Shown: piece after piece, positions 31,675-60,905 of the stretch
How positions within the stretch are numbered: position 1 is the first letter of the stretch
Layout of the letters: the number at the start of each line of letters is the position of its first letter
Source of the DNA: an uncultured archaeon
GTDB lineage: Archaea > Iainarchaeota > Iainarchaeia > Iainarchaeales > JAAZKV01
Assembly (NCBI GenBank): GCA_964583285.1
Contig: CAZOVD010000001.1
Location: 22,558 to 86,557, forward strand
Reading direction: 5' to 3'
Length of the DNA stretch: 64,000 nucleotides
The notes under the pieces: model-generated
The model's database searches: none
What the model was told of the DNA's origin: nothing
What the model saw: only the letters and a program-made list of their open reading frames with translations
Translations under genes and position numbers: made by a program

Positions 31675-32244
31675 TTATTCAACTCTTAATTGATCTCTTA
31701 CAATTTTACTGTTAAAGTCACATTCGGTTTTTGGTTTTATTATAAATTTACACTTCTCATTACCCATTGCTTTACATTCACTTTCAACGCATTCAACATC
31801 TTCATTAAAAACATCGCTAAACAAAGATGCAAGAACTGCTTTAATTATAATATCAACTTCAAAATCAACTTTTGTTTTTAATGTATTTACAAATGGTGAA
31901 TTTTCAAGAACAACAATTGATTTTTTACCCTCAAAATCCAAATCAATAAAATTAATATTTCCCCAACCAGATGCAATAAAAAAAGTTTTAACAAAATCAA
32001 TTTGTTTTTTACCATCAATTCTTAACTCATCAAATTTTGGCATAAAATATTTCATAGAACTTTCTTTCACCCCATAATAAATATCTTTTCTTTGCTCAAC
32101 ATTACTTTTACTAATAAAGTCAATTAAAATATCTGTTGGGAAAATTACAAAAGGAATATTTACAAGTAAAAAATTATTTTGTTGATACTTAAGAGTATTT
32201 GTAAAAATGTATTTATCAAAAAACTGATTAAGCATTTTTCTCAA
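31675..32244 (-). CDS. V4R (4-vinyl reductase)-like small-molecule-binding domain protein
   Basis: 189 aa; C-terminal VECVESECKAMGNEKCKFIIKP matches the V4R Cys/Gly signature (ExxC...G...CxF). Confidence 0.5.
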   Translation of the reverse strand: MRKMLNQFFDKYIFTNTLKYQQNNFLLVNIPFVIFPTDILIDFISKSNVEQRKDIYYGVKESSMKYFMPKFDELRIDGKKQIDFVKTFFIASGWGNINFIDLDFEGKKSIVVLENSPFVNTLKTKVDFEVDIIIKAVLASLFSDVFNEDVECVESECKAMGNEKCKFIIKPKTECDFNSKIVRDQLRVE

Positions 32245-32599
32245 CCCCCATTTTTTTCTTTTCTTTTAAATAATTTAAAAAATCAAGCGAATGGTCAAAA
32301 TTTTCTCCTTTTAAAATCTCATGAACTACTCTATATTTTTCTACAAGAACTGGCCAAACAATTAAAGTATTCCCTGCTTTTTTTGAAATTAAAAGACCTT
32401 TATTTATTATTTTTTTTAAATAATAATTGTATTTTGAATTCATTCTTTTTTTATCTTCTAAAGTATTTATCTTTTCATTAAAATGACCTGCAATTTCAAG
32501 AGCTGTTGACGGCCAAAATTCTAAAACAAAATCATAAATTTCTCTTTCAAATTCATCCAAACTAGAAATTTCTGCAAATACAGAATTTTTATCAAACAT
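32228..32599 (-). CDS. Winged-helix transcriptional regulator-like protein
   Basis: 123 aa; central STALEIAGHFNEKINTLEDK...LISKKAGNTLIVWP resembles an HTH plus wing; overlaps the downstream V4R gene by 17 nt (possible operon). Confidence 0.4.
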   Translation of the reverse strand: MFDKNSVFAEISSLDEFEREIYDFVLEFWPSTALEIAGHFNEKINTLEDKKRMNSKYNYYLKKIINKGLLISKKAGNTLIVWPVLVEKYRVVHEILKGENFDHSLDFLNYLKEKKKMGVEKNA

Positions 32600-32640
32600 G
32601 TTGTTAAAATAACATAAAATGACTATTTAATACTTACTTT

Positions 32641-32868
32641 TTCTGTGTGTACAGAAATAAAAGCTCTATTGAGTACCAAACAAGTATAAAAATAATAATC
32701 ACTTATCGCCCAAGTGAGAGGGCGAAACACACAATAACTAGGACATTTTAAAATAAAATAATGCTTTATCAAGTTTCAAAGACACGAAGATAATGCTTCG
32801 TACCCACCAGGCGAAACTGGTGTGTCCGAGAAACAGTGTGTTTTTATATGAGTAATAACAATATTATT
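32641..32868. ncRNA. Candidate structured non-coding RNA (identity unresolved)
   Basis: About 230-nt ORF-free island, GC-enriched relative to flanks. Three perfect hairpins: CGCCC-aagtgaga-GGGCG (32688-32705), ACGAAG-ataatg-CTTCGT (32793-32810), CACCAG-GCGAAA-CTGGTG (32815-32832). Flanked by CTGTGTGTACAG and CAGTGTG elements. Strand and class cannot be decided by eye. Confidence 0.35.
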
Positions 32869-32876
32869 TAGATATT

Positions 32877-33284
32877 ATGAAATGTGCAATTGATGAGAAT
32901 ACAAGTATTTCAAAAATACCAAAAGATATTAATGAAGTTCATTTAATTAGACCAATAAAAAAAGAAAAATTAAATGAATTGCTTGCAACAAGACAAATAA
33001 ACAAAATAACTATGTCAGAGTCTTGTTATAAAAGAATTCCAAAAAAATCAATAAATAATTTAAAAGAAAAAGGAATACAAATACTAAGTGAAAAAAGAAG
33101 AGGCAGACCCCTTAATGTTAGTATGGATAAAATGCTTGAGATTATAGAACTAAGAAAAGATTATCAAAGCATAAGAGAAATAGAAAAAATAACTGCAATT
33201 CCAAAATCAACAATACATTATTTATTAAAATATGCTGATAGAGGAAAAATAAAAAAAGGTTCAACTGTAATTTATTTAAAATAA
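32877..33284 (+). CDS. Solo HTH protein resembling the N-terminal DNA-binding domain of IS630/Tc1-type transposases; no DDE domain
   Basis: 135 aa; RRGRPLNVSMDKMLEIIELRKDYQSIREIEKITAIPKSTIHYLLK is a GRP-motif plus HTH arrangement as in transposase N-termini. Confidence 0.4.
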   Translation: MKCAIDENTSISKIPKDINEVHLIRPIKKEKLNELLATRQINKITMSESCYKRIPKKSINNLKEKGIQILSEKRRGRPLNVSMDKMLEIIELRKDYQSIREIEKITAIPKSTIHYLLKYADRGKIKKGSTVIYLK

Positions 33285-47381: not shown

Positions 47382-47795
47382 TTGATTATTATGAGTGGAG
47401 AAAAAGATTGTTTGTTTTGCAAATTTGTTAGAAAAGAAATTCCTTGTGAAATAATTTATGAAGATGAAAATTACTTAGCTCTTTTAGATATTAATCCAAT
47501 GCACCCTGGCCACACTTTAGTTATTCCAAAAAAACATTCGGATTATATTTTTGATTTGAATGATAATGAATTATCAAAGTTATTTATTACTTGCAAAAAA
47601 ATTAGCAAAATTCTAAAAGAAGCAATTAATACTGAAAAAGTAGGAATTGTAGTCGAAGGTTTTTTAGTAAGACATACGCACATTCATTTAGTTCCAATAA
47701 ATAAAGGGATGGCTCTTGACCCAAAACTACAAAAAGGGGCTACTCAAGAAGAACTTGAAGTTGTAACTAAAAAAATAAAAGGTGTGATTAAATGA
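47382..47795 (+). CDS. HIT-family (histidine triad) nucleotide hydrolase
   Basis: 137 aa; histidine triad RHTHIHLVP (HxHxHxx), C4-type zinc motif CLFCKF...C at N-terminus. Confidence 0.85.
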   Translation: MIIMSGEKDCLFCKFVRKEIPCEIIYEDENYLALLDINPMHPGHTLVIPKKHSDYIFDLNDNELSKLFITCKKISKILKEAINTEKVGIVVEGFLVRHTHIHLVPINKGMALDPKLQKGATQEELEVVTKKIKGVIK

Positions 47796-47941
47796 GACCA
47801 AAAATAAAAAAAAATATTCCATTAATTAGAGCAGTTAGTAAAAATCAAAAAGGAACTGGCGAGGGAAATGCCTATCGTACAAGTCTTGCAAGATATATTA
47901 AAAGAAAAAGAAAAGAACTTATTAACAAAAAAACAAAATAA
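47792..47941 (+). CDS. Small basic ORF (49 aa), unannotated
   Basis: MRPKIKKNIPLIRAVSKNQKGTGEGNAYRTSLARYIKRKRKELINKKTK; ATGA overlap with the HIT stop; followed by a hairpin plus T-tract. Could be a small ribosomal-like protein or spurious. Confidence 0.3.
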   Translation: MRPKIKKNIPLIRAVSKNQKGTGEGNAYRTSLARYIKRKRKELINKKTK

Positions 47942-47967
47942 AGTCAAAATTTTAGAACATTTTTTTA

Positions 47968-47995
47968 GTCTAGAAAAACACACTTTTTCTAGGAC
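47968..47995 (+). terminator. Hairpin (GTCTAGAAAAA-cacac-TTTTTCTAGGAC) followed by T-rich tract
   Basis: 10-bp near-perfect inverted repeat directly after the last gene of the aIF5A-HIT operon, followed by TTTTAGTTTG. Confidence 0.4.
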
Positions 47996-48266
47996 AATTT
48001 TAGTTTGAAAATCCTTTTAAAAAAGTAAAAACTGCTTCACAATCCAAACTATAAAAGTATTAATTGTAAGTAACCCTACTACTATAAAGAAATTAAATTT
48101 CTAAATTTTCCCAACACACAAGAACTTGAAAAAGTAATATAATGCCACTATTGTGCATTTAAAAAACGCACATAAGTCAATCGCATAATCATGACGAAGT
48201 AGGACCGGCAAAAAACCCTAAAAGGGCTTATAAATAAAAGAAAATAACAATACTTGAGTGATAAAA

Positions 48267-50387
48267 ATGGAAATAAATTTAGAAGAACTTGAAAAACAAG
48301 AATCAAGCCCTTTTTCAGAAAAATTTGAAGAATTCTTTAATTTAGAATATAAAAAAGAAATTGAAAAAATTATTGAAGAATATCCTCAGGAAAGAAGTTT
48401 GGTAGTTGATTTTAAAGTACTTGAAAAATTTGATCCAATTTTAGCAGATGAATTAATTGAAAACCCTGACTCAATACTTGAAGCTGCAAATTCAGCAATA
48501 AAAGAAATTAACATTCCCTCACTTAATGTTGAAGAATTTAAACCACACATTAGATTTAATAACTTACCAAGAGATAGACAAGTAAACCTAAAAAATATCA
48601 GCTCAAACCACTTATCAAAAATGATTTGCGTTGAAGGACTTGTAAGACAAATAACTGATGTTTTACCAAAATTAAAAATGGCTACTTGGAAATGCAAACG
48701 ATGCGGAAATATTTATAGAACCCCACAAGAAAAACAACAAATACAAAAGCCAAATATGTGTGAATGTCACTCAAGAGAGTTTGATTTACTTGATGAAAAA
48801 AGTTCTTTTGAAGATTATCAAAAAATACAAATACAAGAACCTCTTGAAAAATTAAGAGGAAATGAACAAGCAGTTTATATTGATGCATATGTTAGTGATG
48901 ATTTAGTAAATAGAGTTAGTGCTGGAGATAAAACAAACTTTGTTGGAGTACTTAGACTTGTACCTCCGCAAAAAGACAAAAAACCAATTTATGGAAGATA
49001 CATAGAAGTTAATCACTTAGAAGAAACACAAAAAGAATTTAGCGAAATTGATGTTAATAAAGAAGAAGAAGAAAAAATAAAAAAACTTGCAAAAAGAGAT
49101 GACATTTTTGAAGTACTAACAAATAGTATTGCCCCATTAATTTATGGACATGATATTGTAAAACAATCAATAGTTTTACAGCTATTTGGAGGTGTAACAA
49201 AATATTTACCAAATGAACAAACAATAAGGGGCAACATACATATTTTGTTAGTTGGTGATCCTGGTTGTGGAAAATCACAACTTTTGCAAGCAACAACAAA
49301 TATTGCACCAAAAAGTATTTACATAAGTGGAAAAACAACTTCTGGAGTTGGACTTACTGCAAGTGCTGTTAAAGATGAATTTGGAGAAGGTGGGTGGACT
49401 CTTAAAGCTGGAGCACTAGTACTTGCGTCAGGCGGAATTTGCATGGCAGATGAACTTGATAAAATGGATCCACAAGATAGAAGTGCCTTGCACGAAGCAA
49501 TGGAACAAGGAATGATAAGTGTAGCAAAAGCAGGAATAATTTCAAGATTTAAATCAGACACTTCAATGCTTGCTGCTGCAAATCCAAAATTTTCTAGATT
49601 TGATAAATATCAATCACCACTTGAACAAATAGATTTACCACCATCATTAATTTCAAGATTTGATTTATTTTTTATGATAAAAGATATTCTTGATAGAACT
49701 CAAGACCAAAATATTGCAGAACACATTCTAAAAACACATCAAAGTGGAGAAAAATTAAGACAAGTAGCAAAACTTGGAAAAAAATTATCAAAAGAAGAAA
49801 AAGAAGAAATTGATGAAAGAACAAAGCCAATAATTGATTCAGAATTATTAAGAAAATATATTTCATATTGTAGACAAAAATGTTTTCCGGTTTTAAATGA
49901 AGATGCGATAAATGAAATAACTGATTTTTATGTAAGACTTCGTGATCAAGGAAGACAAGATGGAGCATATGCTGCAACAGCAAGACAACTTGAAGGGCTT
50001 GTAAGACTTGCAGAAGCAAATGCAAAAATAAGACTAAAAGATTCTGTAGAACTTGAAGACGCACAAAGAGCAATAAATCTTGTTAAAAGAAGTTTAGAAG
50101 AAACTGTAACTGATCCAGAAACTGGAAAAATTGATATTGATATAATTAATTCAGGAGTAACTAGTACAAAACAACACTCAATAAATATAACTTTAAAATT
50201 AATAAAAGATTTTGCAATTGAAATGGATATGGTTCCAGTAGAACAAGTATTAAGTGAAGGAATTGAAAAAGGGCTTGATGAAACTAAAATAAATTCAGCA
50301 ATAGAAGATTTGATTAAAAAGGGAGAAATTTATAGTCCACGACATGGATTTGTAAAACCTACAAAAAAGGATAAAAATTTTAGCTAA
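48267..50387 (+). CDS. mcm: MCM replicative helicase
   Basis: N-terminal Zn finger (CKRCGN...CECHS), AAA+ Walker A ILLVGDPGCGKSQLL, Walker B CMADELDKMD, arginine finger SRFDL, C-terminal wH. No intein. Confidence 0.9.
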   Translation: MEINLEELEKQESSPFSEKFEEFFNLEYKKEIEKIIEEYPQERSLVVDFKVLEKFDPILADELIENPDSILEAANSAIKEINIPSLNVEEFKPHIRFNNLPRDRQVNLKNISSNHLSKMICVEGLVRQITDVLPKLKMATWKCKRCGNIYRTPQEKQQIQKPNMCECHSREFDLLDEKSSFEDYQKIQIQEPLEKLRGNEQAVYIDAYVSDDLVNRVSAGDKTNFVGVLRLVPPQKDKKPIYGRYIEVNHLEETQKEFSEIDVNKEEEEKIKKLAKRDDIFEVLTNSIAPLIYGHDIVKQSIVLQLFGGVTKYLPNEQTIRGNIHILLVGDPGCGKSQLLQATTNIAPKSIYISGKTTSGVGLTASAVKDEFGEGGWTLKAGALVLASGGICMADELDKMDPQDRSALHEAMEQGMISVAKAGIISRFKSDTSMLAAANPKFSRFDKYQSPLEQIDLPPSLISRFDLFFMIKDILDRTQDQNIAEHILKTHQSGEKLRQVAKLGKKLSKEEKEEIDERTKPIIDSELLRKYISYCRQKCFPVLNEDAINEITDFYVRLRDQGRQDGAYAATARQLEGLVRLAEANAKIRLKDSVELEDAQRAINLVKRSLEETVTDPETGKIDIDIINSGVTSTKQHSINITLKLIKDFAIEMDMVPVEQVLSEGIEKGLDETKINSAIEDLIKKGEIYSPRHGFVKPTKKDKNFS

Positions 50388-60597: not shown

Positions 60598-60647
60598 TGT
60601 ACGAATTGATTTTAATCAAGATTCTGTATTTATTTTTATGCAAAAAT

Positions 60648-60666
60648 AGGTTCTTTTTTTAAATGT
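60648..60666 (+). promoter_or_regulatory. AGGTTCTTTTTTTAAAT box, first of two direct repeats (promoter-like A/T box)
   Basis: Repeated nearly identically at 60737-60756 (AGGTTCTTTTTTAAAT); a third TTTTTTAAATG box lies at 60770-60780, about 55 nt before tRNA-Cys. Confidence 0.3.
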
Positions 60667-60834
60667 CCTGTTTCGCCATGACTAGACGATTCACTCTTTG
60701 TGCTATTTACAATACCACTTAGTGGTTTTAATAACAAAAGGTTCTTTTTTAAATAAAATGGAATTTAATTTTTTAAATGTGGTGTTGAGCCAAAGGCGAA
60801 GACAGCACCCAAATGCCGCCTGGCTGAGGCAGGC

Positions 60835-60905
60835 GCAGGGGTGGCAGAACGGTTATGCACTCCCCTGCAGAGGGAGTGAAGAGGGTTCGACTCCCTTCCC
60901 TTGCT
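60835..60905 (+). tRNA. tRNA-Cys (anticodon GCA)
   Basis: Hand-folded cloverleaf. Acceptor GCAGGGG/CCCTTGC (one G-U pair). D arm GCAG-AACGGTT-ATGC. Anticodon stem CTCCC/GGGAG with loop CT-GCA-GA (U33, R37). 4-nt variable loop. T arm GAGGG-TTCGACT-CCCTT (GTTCGA). Discriminator T; no encoded CCA; no intron. Confidence 0.8.

Follow-up and report, generated by a model that had tools for sequence, protein, structure and literature searches.

A putative divergent control region with a conserved two-hairpin module and a dispersed 22-nt motif in an Iainarchaeota archaeon

The analysis was performed on a 64,000-nt stretch of archaeal DNA (the window), in which the initial annotation had singled out 228 nt (32641-32868) as an island holding a candidate structured RNA. 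The neighbouring genes and the names of their homologues point to Iainarchaeota as the host group. The genome is that of an AT-rich DPANN (Iainarchaeota) archaeon. The island lies between a winged-helix regulator gene and a gene for a solo HTH protein, as had been described. It was compared with approximately 14 related loci (given L numbers below), and the survey of the operator-like boxes covered 15 lineages. The features of the locus, and one further site in the window, are as follows:

31675-32244, minus strand: gene for a 189-aa V4R-domain protein (Pfam V4R, E = 8.8e-10)
32228-32599, minus strand: gene for a 123-aa winged-helix regulator (AF2 model, pLDDT 80)
32570-32585, unstranded: box A, an operator-like palindrome, TTCTGCAAATACAGAA, in codons 5-10 of the winged-helix gene
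32624-32632, minus strand: predicted TATA box of the winged-helix gene, TATTAAATA, centred ~29 nt before the ATG
32641-32656, unstranded: box B, an operator-like palindrome, TTCTGTGTGTACAGAA, listed as CTGTGTGTACAG in the initial annotation
32706-32725, unstranded: hairpin 1, TCGCCC-AAGTGAGA-GGGCGA, a perfect stem
32724-32745, minus strand: left copy of the 22-nt motif, inverted and more degenerate, with three mismatches to the motif
32746-32783, unstranded: AT-rich linker (GC 0.18), with minus-strand U-runs at 32758-32755 and 32753-32750
32750-32822, minus strand: proposed short RNA, which would start at ~32822 next to GGACA, contain hairpins 3 and 2, and end at a U-run
32784-32801, minus strand: hairpin 2, ACGAAG/CTTCGT, a perfect stem
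32805-32822, minus strand: hairpin 3, CACCAG-GCGAAA-CTGGTG, with compensatory changes, adjoining the motif
32823-32844, plus strand: right copy of the 22-nt motif, TGTCCGAGAAACAGTGTGTTTT, whose T-run merges into the TATA box
32841-32849, plus strand: predicted TATA box of the HTH gene, TTTTTATAT, at a distance from the ATG (32877) that is conserved in all relatives
32877-33284, plus strand: gene for a 135-aa DUF1699_N/HTH protein, conserved across Iainarchaeota
47975-47996, minus strand: third motif copy, with the MCM gene 262 nt downstream

The winged-helix protein had no Pfam or NCBIfam match. Its predicted structure resembles an ArsR/MarR-like winged helix; the top Foldseek matches in the PDB were all ArsR/SmtB, MarR or BlaI repressors (probability 0.95-1.0), with E-values of only ~0.02-0.1. 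The V4R gene overlaps the end of the winged-helix gene, the two are probably co-transcribed, and the pair is kept in all relatives. All 15 lineages have box A (TCTG-N6-CAGA) at +15 relative to the ATG, and its palindrome is retained although the encoded peptide differs between lineages. Box B occupies -56 to -58 in 11 of the 15 and is degenerate in the rest; its half-sites co-vary (TCTGT..ACAGA to TCTGGC..GCCAGA). The two boxes stand at fixed positions (-56 and +15) that bracket the start of the winged-helix gene. The TATTTAA of the intervening TATA box is invariant in alignment A1, and the position of this box suggests that it serves as the promoter of the gene.

The MsvR proteins of methanogens bind boxes at their own promoters, and the gene of M. 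thermautotrophicus faces a divergent operon (PMC3729527). The present region is similar in combining a predicted winged-helix DNA-binding part with a V4R sensor part (PMC3729527), in having palindromic boxes around the regulator's own TATA box and start, with at least two conserved predicted TCTG-N6-CAGA sites at that promoter, and in sharing the intergenic region with a divergent partner, as in M. thermautotrophicus. It is unlike them in that the DNA-binding and V4R parts are separate polypeptides encoded by two overlapping genes, in that the match of the V4R protein to the NCBIfam MsvR C-terminal region (E = 1.1e-5, 25 bits) is far under the cut-off of 220, and in the sequence of the boxes. 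Furthermore, the host is a DPANN archaeon and not a methanogen, and the partner is a PHP/HTH unit and not an oxidative-stress operon. The winged-helix and V4R proteins may constitute a split MsvR-like regulator, of which the TCTG-N6-CAGA boxes would be the probable autoregulatory operators.

On the other side of the island, the 22-nt motif (consensus TGTCCnAGAAAnnGTGnGTTTT) occurs as two inverted copies, back to back. The right copy always lies 26-32 nt before the ATG of an HTH or PHP gene in the relatives, a position retained down to 47-55% identity of the neighbouring protein. The left copy was found in the window and in L001, L009, L013, L074, L011 and L003. With the third copy, which extends into a palindrome (47969-47997), the window holds three copies against 0.09 expected. 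In ~250 kb of related loci, 50 copies were present in both orientations, nearly all of them intergenic and sometimes in tandem; many abut a TATA-like run, and about a fifth (~10 of the 50, as judged by reading the sequences) extend to a palindrome able to form a hairpin. Inverted pairs are confined to this orthologous locus, while the copies elsewhere in the related loci are solo or direct. Among the exact matches in the genome collection, 22 of 55 were in Iainarchaeota MAGs, on several contigs per MAG, and the three matches in viral contigs are at the chance level. A search of the literature on the motif, on Iainarchaeota promoters and on DUF1699 found nothing relevant.

The 135-aa protein next to the right copy has 110 homologue clusters, nearly all of 135 aa, whose source names are Iainarchaeum, Diapherotrites or archaeon and no others. 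It carries a resolvase-type HTH with weak Pfam matches only. The AF2 model (pLDDT 83) comprises an N-terminal alpha/beta domain and a C-terminal HTH, and gave no significant fold match in the PDB. The motif may be a protein-binding site, possibly for the adjacent 135-aa protein, a link suggested only by adjacency and co-distribution. As in bacterial REP elements and MITEs, the motif is short, multi-copy, nearly always intergenic and present in both orientations, with a share of copies extending to hairpin-capable palindromes. It differs from these elements in that its core is not palindromic, that a TATA-like run adjoins many of the copies, and that one copy has stayed at an orthologous promoter across deep divergence; no transposase association or conserved internal sequence was seen.

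Several other identities were considered and rejected. A replication origin or ORB, suggested by the copy upstream of MCM, does not fit copies dispersed over many contigs per genome, and at 32.7 kb the flanking genes are convergent, not divergent. A generic promoter element of RNA genes was discounted, as the tRNA-Cys promoter lacks the motif and the tRNAs of the related loci are not adjacent to it. A CRISPR-like array was set aside because the 'spacers' between tandem copies recur from locus to locus and prove to be degenerate copies in turn, with a period of 26 nt. An invertible segment with its recombinase was also rejected, since the 135-aa protein has no visible serine-recombinase motif or significant fold match.

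The island had been called GC-enriched and ORF-free. The enrichment is genuine and modest: the 228 nt have a GC content of 0.333, compared with 0.269 on average for the window, and 9% of segments of this size are at least as GC-rich, while the core (32700-32840) reaches 0.411 (top 0.8%). The stretch is not strictly free of ORFs, those present being of 34 aa and 49 aa only. The three perfect hairpins were confirmed at their reported positions and exceed chance; when perfect stems of at least 5 bp with at least three G/C per arm were counted in the 8.5 kb without ORFs of at least 100 aa, eight distinct hairpins were found, three of them inside a single 117-nt stretch of the island. The 228 nt also fold better than shuffled sequences (z = -3.7 on the plus strand and -4.5 on the minus strand; none of 200 shuffles as good), and in the MFE structure ACACAC/GUGUGU and GGACA/UGUCC pairs enclose the hairpins.

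Searches for known RNA families were negative in the island. At the gathering score, the sole Rfam match in the whole window was a tRNA-Cys at 60835-60905, leaving none in the island on either strand. A permissive search (E up to 10) of 32400-33100 returned a single noise match (E = 9.7), and Rfam searches of 18 related loci and the second motif site gave tRNAs only. The absence of a tRNA, as first reported, agrees with ARAGORN and RF00005, neither of which had a match in the island; split or intron-containing tRNAs and tRNA-like RNAs were rejected as well, the arm and loop sizes being unfittable by hand. Neither a C box (RUGAUGA) nor a D box (CUGA) was seen on either strand, and the ACA that follows the motif core in the window, as in an H/ACA sRNA, is not found in L088, L013, L074 or L001. 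The sequences do not fit integron attC sites or bulge-helix-bulge splice motifs. The annotation had suggested a compact SRP RNA, a reduced RNase P RNA or another sRNA for a single RNA of ~230 nt. The island is like SRP RNA and RNase P RNA in its size range and in having a hairpin with a GNRA-like loop; unlike them, it has no covariance-model match and no conserved helix-8 or CR-I/CR-V sequence, its supposed closing helix lacks conservation as a paired structure, and close relatives lack the greater part of the block. SRP RNA and RNase P RNA are excluded.

The supposed closing helix had been drawn between related elements at both ends of the island. These were mis-assigned: CTGTGTGTACAG is a self-contained palindrome, and the blocks that are actually complementary are AAACACAC..GGACA (32725-32745) and TGTCC..GTGTGTTT (32823-32843), which are the inverted motif copies (21 nt, 76% complementary, flanking a 77-nt segment). 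None of the 16 long-range pairs was compensated across seven lineages, all 13 departures being one-sided, and the pairing statistics were equal to those of shuffles. The DNA between the two motif copies ranges from 11 to 96 nt among the relatives; in the closest of them, with neighbouring proteins 82-85% identical, an 11-nt spacer replaces the hairpin-bearing 77 nt of the window. Assemblies break at this insert, possibly through homopolymer length variation, presence/absence polymorphism or inversion; two related species are well covered in the Logan runs SRR324568xx-9xx. None of the relatives compared showed hairpin 1, which is absent from L001, L009 and L011; in L013, its place is taken by GC hairpins unrelated to it. 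The ends of the block are a conserved operator palindrome and a promoter-abutting motif, the latter also found alone at many other loci. The reading of the block as one structured RNA of ~190-230 nt, with a long-range helix closing three hairpins, draws on the folding scores and on the enclosing pairs of the MFE structure; set against the missing Rfam match and the comparisons above, it is scarcely credible. Inverted copies of a protein-binding motif can imitate a closing helix in the folding of a single sequence.

What is conserved between the motif copies is a two-hairpin module of ~45 nt (32779-32822), present in the window and in four other lineages. The hairpin with the GNRA-like loop (hairpin 3) is a conserved structure in these five lineages, and so part of the earlier claim stands, although as part of this module and not of a 230-nt RNA. 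In alignments built without reference to structure, four of its six pairs have changed on both sides, and its cells are paired in 90% (plus strand) and 93% (minus strand) of cases, against 23-57% in slid controls; 0-4 of 500 shuffles attain the main measures. Compensated pairs, the generic mark of a structured RNA, are seen in hairpin 3 (4/6) and not in the long-range helix (0/16). The covariation rests on five sequences, three of which are fairly close relatives. The distance from hairpin 3 to the TGTCC of the motif is zero in all five lineages, and the spacing of its arms is 6 nt in four of them and 8 or 12 in L013. On the plus strand, the loops are GNRA-like (GCGA, GUGA or GCAA) in four of the five lineages. 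Hairpin 2 reaches 9 bp through two G.U pairs on the minus strand only. A second hairpin of other sequence lies 3-11 nt from hairpin 3 in L088, L089, L013 and L074; the conservation of hairpin 2 is positional only, with loop and stem sizes that vary from 4 to 10 nt.

The module is missing from about half of the orthologous loci (L001, L009, L076-L078, L080 and L081) and degenerate in L006 and L008, which have sequence in common with the window and not the hairpins; it is therefore dispensable. As the operator boxes co-vary too, two-sided change alone is no proof of an RNA. A covariance model built on hairpin 3 and the motif recovered the hairpin at the orthologous locus and hardly anywhere else, so that a hairpin was judged not to belong to the motif in general. 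On the strength of the conserved hairpins, a short structured RNA (~45-75 nt) is plausible.

The reading we favour, tentatively and at somewhat below even probability, is that the island is a divergent promoter/operator region with a conserved two-hairpin module that is probably the 5' part of a minus-strand RNA. The region would be a mosaic and not one RNA gene, from which two regulator units, transcribed away from each other, are jointly controlled. The TATA box of the HTH gene may be bidirectional and would then drive, in the opposite direction, an RNA of ~65-75 nt from ~32822, which would stop at the U-runs 32758-32750. In the linkers equivalent to 32746-32783, L088 and L089 have U7 runs on the minus-equivalent strand. 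Such an RNA would probably serve to keep upstream divergent transcription within the interval that separates the promoters, or have a regulatory role as a small RNA.

In the five lineages, 50-57 nt separate the boundary of hairpin 3 from the downstream HTH or PHP ATG, and this gene is probably leaderless or has a short leader. In Pyrococcus furiosus, antisense transcripts start ~50 bp upstream of the primary starts at a common TATA box (49 bp in vitro) (PMC6640164), a spacing that the hairpin boundary fits. Given the standard ~22 nt between TATA box and start, the divergent start would be displaced from the hairpin edge to a point 2-5 nt within the arm, and no clear BRE was seen on either side of the TATA box. 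The MFE of the module is lower on the minus-equivalent strand in all five lineages. In a tally made by reading, five positions were G.U on the minus-equivalent strand and a mismatch on the other, and one was the reverse. This strand signal is weak, as the 5:1 tally and the energy differences of 0.5-4.4 kcal/mol are not mutually independent and not significant alone. The likeness to the bidirectional TATA boxes of P. furiosus extends to an AT-rich, near-symmetric TATA box with a predicted second start ~50 bp upstream on the other strand, about where hairpin 3 begins (PMC6640164). The upstream antisense transcripts of P. furiosus are considered non-functional noise without conserved structure (PMC6640164). 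In the present case, a two-hairpin module with compensatory changes would make up the first 45 nt, and the stretch of 22 nt that separates the TATA box from the predicted start is a dispersed motif under strong conservation.

Transcription of the module from the other strand was weighed against this minus-strand reading. A plus-strand RNA would comprise hairpins 2 and 3, followed by the motif as an unpaired or weakly paired tail and by the U5 run (32841-32845). It might be a short transcript in its own right, or belong to the 3' end of a gene lying upstream, as L006 would suggest; placed just before the HTH promoter, it could terminate or insulate transcription, or else be an sRNA whose 3' tail is conserved. 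Hairpin 3 pairs nearly as well on this strand, the U.G pair of L089 is valid there only, and the GNRA-like loops are those of the plus strand. A TATA-like stretch precedes hairpin 2 by 24-38 nt in the window and in L011/L088, and several dispersed motif copies have a hairpin before and a T-run after them. The promoter, however, is not conserved, since L013 and L074 have no TATA-like sequence and that of L089 is too close. The module is less stable on the plus strand in all five lineages, the hairpin stands 18 nt from the U-run, unlike the geometry of a hairpin-dependent terminator, and L006, the sole case with an upstream gene (for a 132-aa membrane protein that ends just upstream of the homologous GC-rich block), lacks the hairpins. 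We regard a plus-strand RNA as unlikely. The hairpins could also act at the DNA level only, as dimer binding sites (6 bp - N6 - 6 bp) or as inverted repeats corrected by template switching. Template-switch mutation (quasi-palindrome correction) makes the arms of an inverted repeat identical in a single step, which the perfect stems would fit. The like two-sided change in the operator boxes, the position of the hairpins ahead of the two predicted promoters, in DNA that need not be transcribed, the 11-96 nt spacer and the absence of the module from half of the relatives are all consistent with DNA-level features. Yet the arm spacing of hairpin 3 and the sizes of hairpin 2 are not fixed, which is unusual for an operator, and stems that differ at four of six positions would need repeated co-evolution of the binding protein. 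Moreover, the non-Watson-Crick positions are mainly G.U on one strand, and neutral correction leaves unexplained a hairpin that ends exactly at the motif edge in five lineages. This explanation, too, is given a low probability.

The 77-nt insert might instead be the remnant of a mobile element, such as a MITE with motif copies as terminal inverted repeats, or of a lost gene, namely the decayed end of the membrane-protein gene of L006/L007. The inverted repeats around the insert, the dispersed multi-copy motif and the varying presence of the insert between close relatives are in keeping with this, and the insert aligns with the last codons and the 3' flank of the L006 gene, with CACGAAGATAnTGC equally 26 nt from the motif. 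A MITE was rejected, as no further copy of the insert turned up in the window or ~400 kb of related loci, and inverted motif pairs occur at this locus alone. Relatives whose neighbouring protein is only 58-61% identical share both the arrangement and its site, which argues for an old resident feature and not a recent insertion. A degraded coding remnant, named at the outset as an alternative to the RNA, was not borne out: a tblastn search with the L006 membrane protein found nothing in the region, the six-frame translations are stop-ridden, and the similarity to the L006 gene is in the 3'-flank DNA only. Decay would also not give the compensatory changes in hairpin 3, and a remnant of either kind is very unlikely. 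In an unsystematic look, no target-site duplication was noticed.

Beyond this locus, it is conceivable, though we consider it quite unlikely, that the divergent promoter/operator region exemplifies a hitherto undescribed, phylum-wide regulatory system of Iainarchaeota, in which the motif, in tens of copies per ~1 Mb genome, would be bound by the universally conserved 135-aa protein and, at the promoter of that protein's gene, would set the start of a functional divergent RNA. The motif of this system would be 22-28 nt long, asymmetric and intergenic, with a copy always present at the promoter of the 135-aa gene. The two 5' hairpins of the divergent RNA would be under selection. If true, this RNA would be a functional, structured 'upstream antisense' RNA in archaea and not transcriptional noise.

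The candidate RNA gene is thus reduced, in that most of its 'structure' appears to be regulatory DNA, with no new SRP-like or RNase-P-like RNA. To our knowledge, almost nothing is known of gene regulation in DPANN archaea. Of interest in this respect is a dispersed, strongly conserved motif of 22 nt, which is specific to Iainarchaeota and has a candidate for its cognate protein encoded beside its best-conserved copy. The module covaries at the place where a common TATA box would start a divergent transcript and, if it is transcribed, would represent selected structure in a class of archaeal transcripts presumed to be noise.

Both genes that flank the region have archaeal neighbours (seryl-tRNA synthetase, prefoldin, Pcc1, RpoP and a DHH protein), and for each of the two flanking proteins the homologues are from MAGs called Candidatus Iainarchaeum or Diapherotrites. 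The features at the locus, and a related one elsewhere in the window, were:

32228-32599, minus strand: 123-aa winged-helix gene
32600-32876: 277-nt intergenic gap between the divergent 123-aa and 135-aa genes
32725-32745, inverted: left copy of a 22-nt motif, more degenerate (AAACACACAATAACTAGGACA), found upstream in seven lineages
32823-32844, plus strand: right motif copy (TGTCCGAGAAACAGTGTGTTTT), merging into TATA-like TTTTTATAT, 27 nt before the HTH start codon
32877-33284, plus strand: 135-aa HTH gene
47975-47996, minus strand: third motif copy (palindrome 47969-47997), in the gap of 317 nt that precedes the MCM gene (48258-50387)

The three perfect hairpins described in the initial annotation were present at 32706-32725, 32784-32801 and 32805-32822 (hairpins 1 to 3). 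When perfect stems of at least 5 bp with at least three G/C in an arm were counted, the window's 8.5 kb without long ORFs contained eight distinct hairpins, three of them at this spot. The 228-nt stretch folded better than 200/200 shuffles on both strands (z = -3.7 and -4.5). GC enrichment was present (0.333 against 0.269 for the window) but only modest over the whole stretch; the core at 32700-32840 had a GC of 0.411, in the top 0.8% of equal-sized windows. ARAGORN found no tRNA in the region, in agreement with the initial reading, and the suggested membership of a known ncRNA family found no match in Rfam on either strand. The sole tRNA in the 64 kb is a tRNA-Cys. The GC-rich leader ahead of it (~55 nt; upstream region 60640-60835) includes a perfect hairpin at 60817-60835, CGCCTG-GCTGAGG-CAGGCG, and a TTTTTTAAAT box stands upstream; GGTTCTTTTTT(T)AAAT occurs twice more, at ~60649 and ~60730.

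The proposal of a single structured RNA of 230 nt was contradicted by comparison with relatives, for which the orthologous region was taken from ~14 lineages via both flanking proteins. The left and right motif copies produce a long-range helix in single-sequence folds; across seven lineages, its 16 pairs showed no compensatory changes, 13/13 departures were one-sided, and the values equalled those of shuffles. The inverted pair amounts to two copies of a conserved sequence with no conserved helix.

The end element CTGTGTGTACAG proved to be part of TTCTGTGTGTACAGAA, a TCTG-N6-CAGA palindrome with a second copy within codons 5-10 of the winged-helix gene (32570-32585). The box was present at +15 from the ATG in 15/15 lineages and at -56 to -58 in 11/15, and its half-sites changed together (TCTGT..ACAGA to TCTGGC..GCCAGA). 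These boxes are predicted to be an operator pair bracketing the promoter, and no part of an RNA. The peptide encoded across the inner box (residues 5-11 of alignment A2) differs by clade, NSVLTEI or HPDMPDL, and the DNA palindrome is kept, so the DNA site seems to constrain the protein sequence.

The 123-aa protein had no match in a Pfam search. Its model is a winged helix (pLDDT 80), with best PDB matches that are all ArsR/SmtB, MarR or BlaI repressors. The V4R protein encoded by the next gene, which overlaps it, gives a weak match to MsvR in the C-terminal half of the latter. MsvR, an HTH-V4R regulator, binds boxes at the promoter of its own gene, which in M. thermautotrophicus faces a divergent operon (PMC3729527). 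The 135-aa family (Pfam DUF1699_N) is very uniform, with 110 clusters, nearly all of 135 aa. The protein is modelled with an alpha/beta domain at the N-terminus and an HTH at the C-terminus, and a PDB fold search returned no significant structural relative. The N-terminal domain has invariant R25, P26, S47, S49, C50 and R53 (alignment A5).

The motif occurs at the equivalent position even where the winged-helix protein of a relative shares only 47-55% identity; in such relatives, the gene downstream is of the PHP family, followed by the HTH gene. In the more distant relatives (loci L013, L074, L076-L078, L080 and L081), this PHP-family gene of ~320 aa separates the motif and TATA box from the 135-aa HTH gene. 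It has been lost from the window and from the nearest lineages with readable DNA, so that the HTH gene now sits directly at the motif/TATA promoter.

The window holds three motif copies against 0.09 expected. When one genome per prokaryotic species was scanned for the exact pattern, there were 55 matches, 22 of them in Iainarchaeota MAGs (where one MAG can have them on as many as five contigs) and the others scattered bacterial singletons; viral contigs gave matches only at chance level. Under looser matching, ~250 kb of related loci yielded 50 copies, in both orientations and nearly all intergenic, and no copy coincided with an Rfam family. Many copies are directly followed by a TATA-like run, and a few reversed copies lie just upstream of a TATA box. 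At three loci the copies are arrayed in tandem, with a repeat period of 26 nt. Arrays of two to three copies (period ~26 nt) were seen at L042:3018-3090, L063:4638-4709, L069:3755-3830 and L059:4925-4999; the last copy adjoins a TATA-like run, the DNA between full copies is a degenerate copy conserved across loci, and in L042 a 290-aa gene begins 40 nt downstream. Six copies overlap the stop codon of an opposite-strand gene, with the TAA within the TAAAACACAC T-run (L028:3343, L039:6885, L040:115 and 3385, L061:1878, L070:4104) and CTTTTT after the motif on that gene's strand. The overlaps could mean that the motif works at the 3' ends of genes, in termination. We read the motif as a putative protein-binding site, for which the 135-aa protein is the obvious candidate binder.

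The third copy is a near-perfect palindrome (GTCCTAGAAAAA-GTGTG-TTTTTCTAGAC, stem of 9 bp plus 3 more). Rfam had no match within 47780-48270, and the gap includes a GC-richer stretch at ~48170-48215. Nearby, a very basic 49-aa ORF (MRPKIKKNIPLIRAVSKNQKGTGEGNAYRTSLARYIKRKRKELINKKTK, 47792-47941, plus strand) shares 4 nt with the end of the 137-aa gene before it and may be a real small protein gene.

The spacer between the two motif copies varies in length, from 11 nt in the closest relatives (L001 and L009/L087, with proteins 82-85% identical) through 30 nt (L008) to 72 nt (L013), 73 nt (the L011+L088 species, two contigs hand-joined on a 23-nt overlap), 77 nt (the window) and 96 nt (L074). In L006/L007, it contains a complete 132-aa membrane-protein gene. 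In this stretch (L006:2347-2990, and L007), the gene for the hydrophobic protein lies between the two regulator genes behind a degenerate motif-plus-TATA duplicate, as if a gene had been gained and its promoter duplicated. All Logan contigs of two related species (20, 13, 15 and 21; L003-L005 and L011-L012 on the winged-helix side, L088 and L089 on the HTH side) end within the insert where it is AT-rich, 13-35 nt beyond the left motif, which could reflect homopolymer length variation, strain polymorphism or low coverage.

Five insert-bearing lineages were aligned on the anchor TGTCC. In all five, a GC-rich 6-bp hairpin (hairpin 3) directly abuts the motif, its last base being the one that precedes it; 3-11 nt from hairpin 3 there is a second hairpin, unrelated in sequence.

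Arms of hairpin 3 (5' arm / 3' arm)
Window: CACCAG / CTGGTG
L088: CACCAG / CTGGCA
L089: CGCCTG / CGGGCG
L074: CAACTG / CAGTTG
L013: CGCTCC / GGAGCG

Both sides had changed in 4/6 pairs, and RNAalifold predicted the helix on MAFFT alignments built blind to structure. Of the cells, 90% (plus strand) and 93% (minus strand) were paired, against 23-57% with the partner slid, and the main measures were reached by at most 4/500 shuffles. A covariance model of hairpin 3 and the motif found the hairpin almost only at this orthologous locus; it is therefore no general part of the dispersed motif. Half of the relatives are without the module, the hairpins are not retained in L006 or L008, and hairpin 1 was not found among the other lineages compared.

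The end and the 3' flank of the L006/L007 membrane-protein gene align with the window's insert. An origin as a gene remnant, or as a MITE, leaves both the compensatory changes and the deep positional conservation unaccounted for. A less likely alternative is that the module matters at the DNA level only, as a palindromic operator or as a product of neutral quasi-palindrome correction. The operator boxes at the same locus co-vary too, which is consistent with this; however, the variable arm spacing and a G.U bias speak against it. Five positions, read from the sequences, form G.U on the strand that corresponds to the minus strand of the window and a mismatch on the other, against one in reverse. 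The module was also more stable on that strand in 5/5 lineages (-16.0/-15.4, -16.2/-15.4, -15.1/-14.6, -27.0/-22.6 and -15.0/-13.6 kcal/mol, minus-equivalent/other). The strand signal is small. A plus-strand RNA comprising the hairpins, a motif tail and U5 is possible, but would have no conserved promoter.

Stability, the G.U tally, U-runs and the spacing of a possible start at ~50 nt suggest instead a short minus-strand RNA, from ~32822 to ~32750. Minus-strand U-runs follow the hairpins at 32758-32755 and 32753-32750 in the window, and as U7 in L088 and L089. The edge of hairpin 3 is 50-57 nt upstream of the HTH/PHP start codon. A TATA box, at which no BRE was evident, lies 21-27 nt before that ATG, which suggests a gene with no leader or almost none. 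Many antisense transcripts of Pyrococcus furiosus begin ~50 bp upstream of a primary start, as TBP on a symmetric TATA box directs transcription in both directions; one such divergent start, at 49 bp, was confirmed in vitro (PMC6640164). The predicted start here could lie within the hairpin by a few nt. With a start at ~32822, the 22 nt from the shared TATA box to the divergent start would be filled by the conserved motif, and a protein on it could block that start and also act on the HTH promoter. We infer this scheme, RNA and bound protein alike, as a whole.

The locus is an ordinary type of feature, a probable divergent promoter/operator region, in an under-studied phylum. Its less ordinary parts are the dispersed, phylum-specific motif and the small hairpin module, which is apparently under structural selection.
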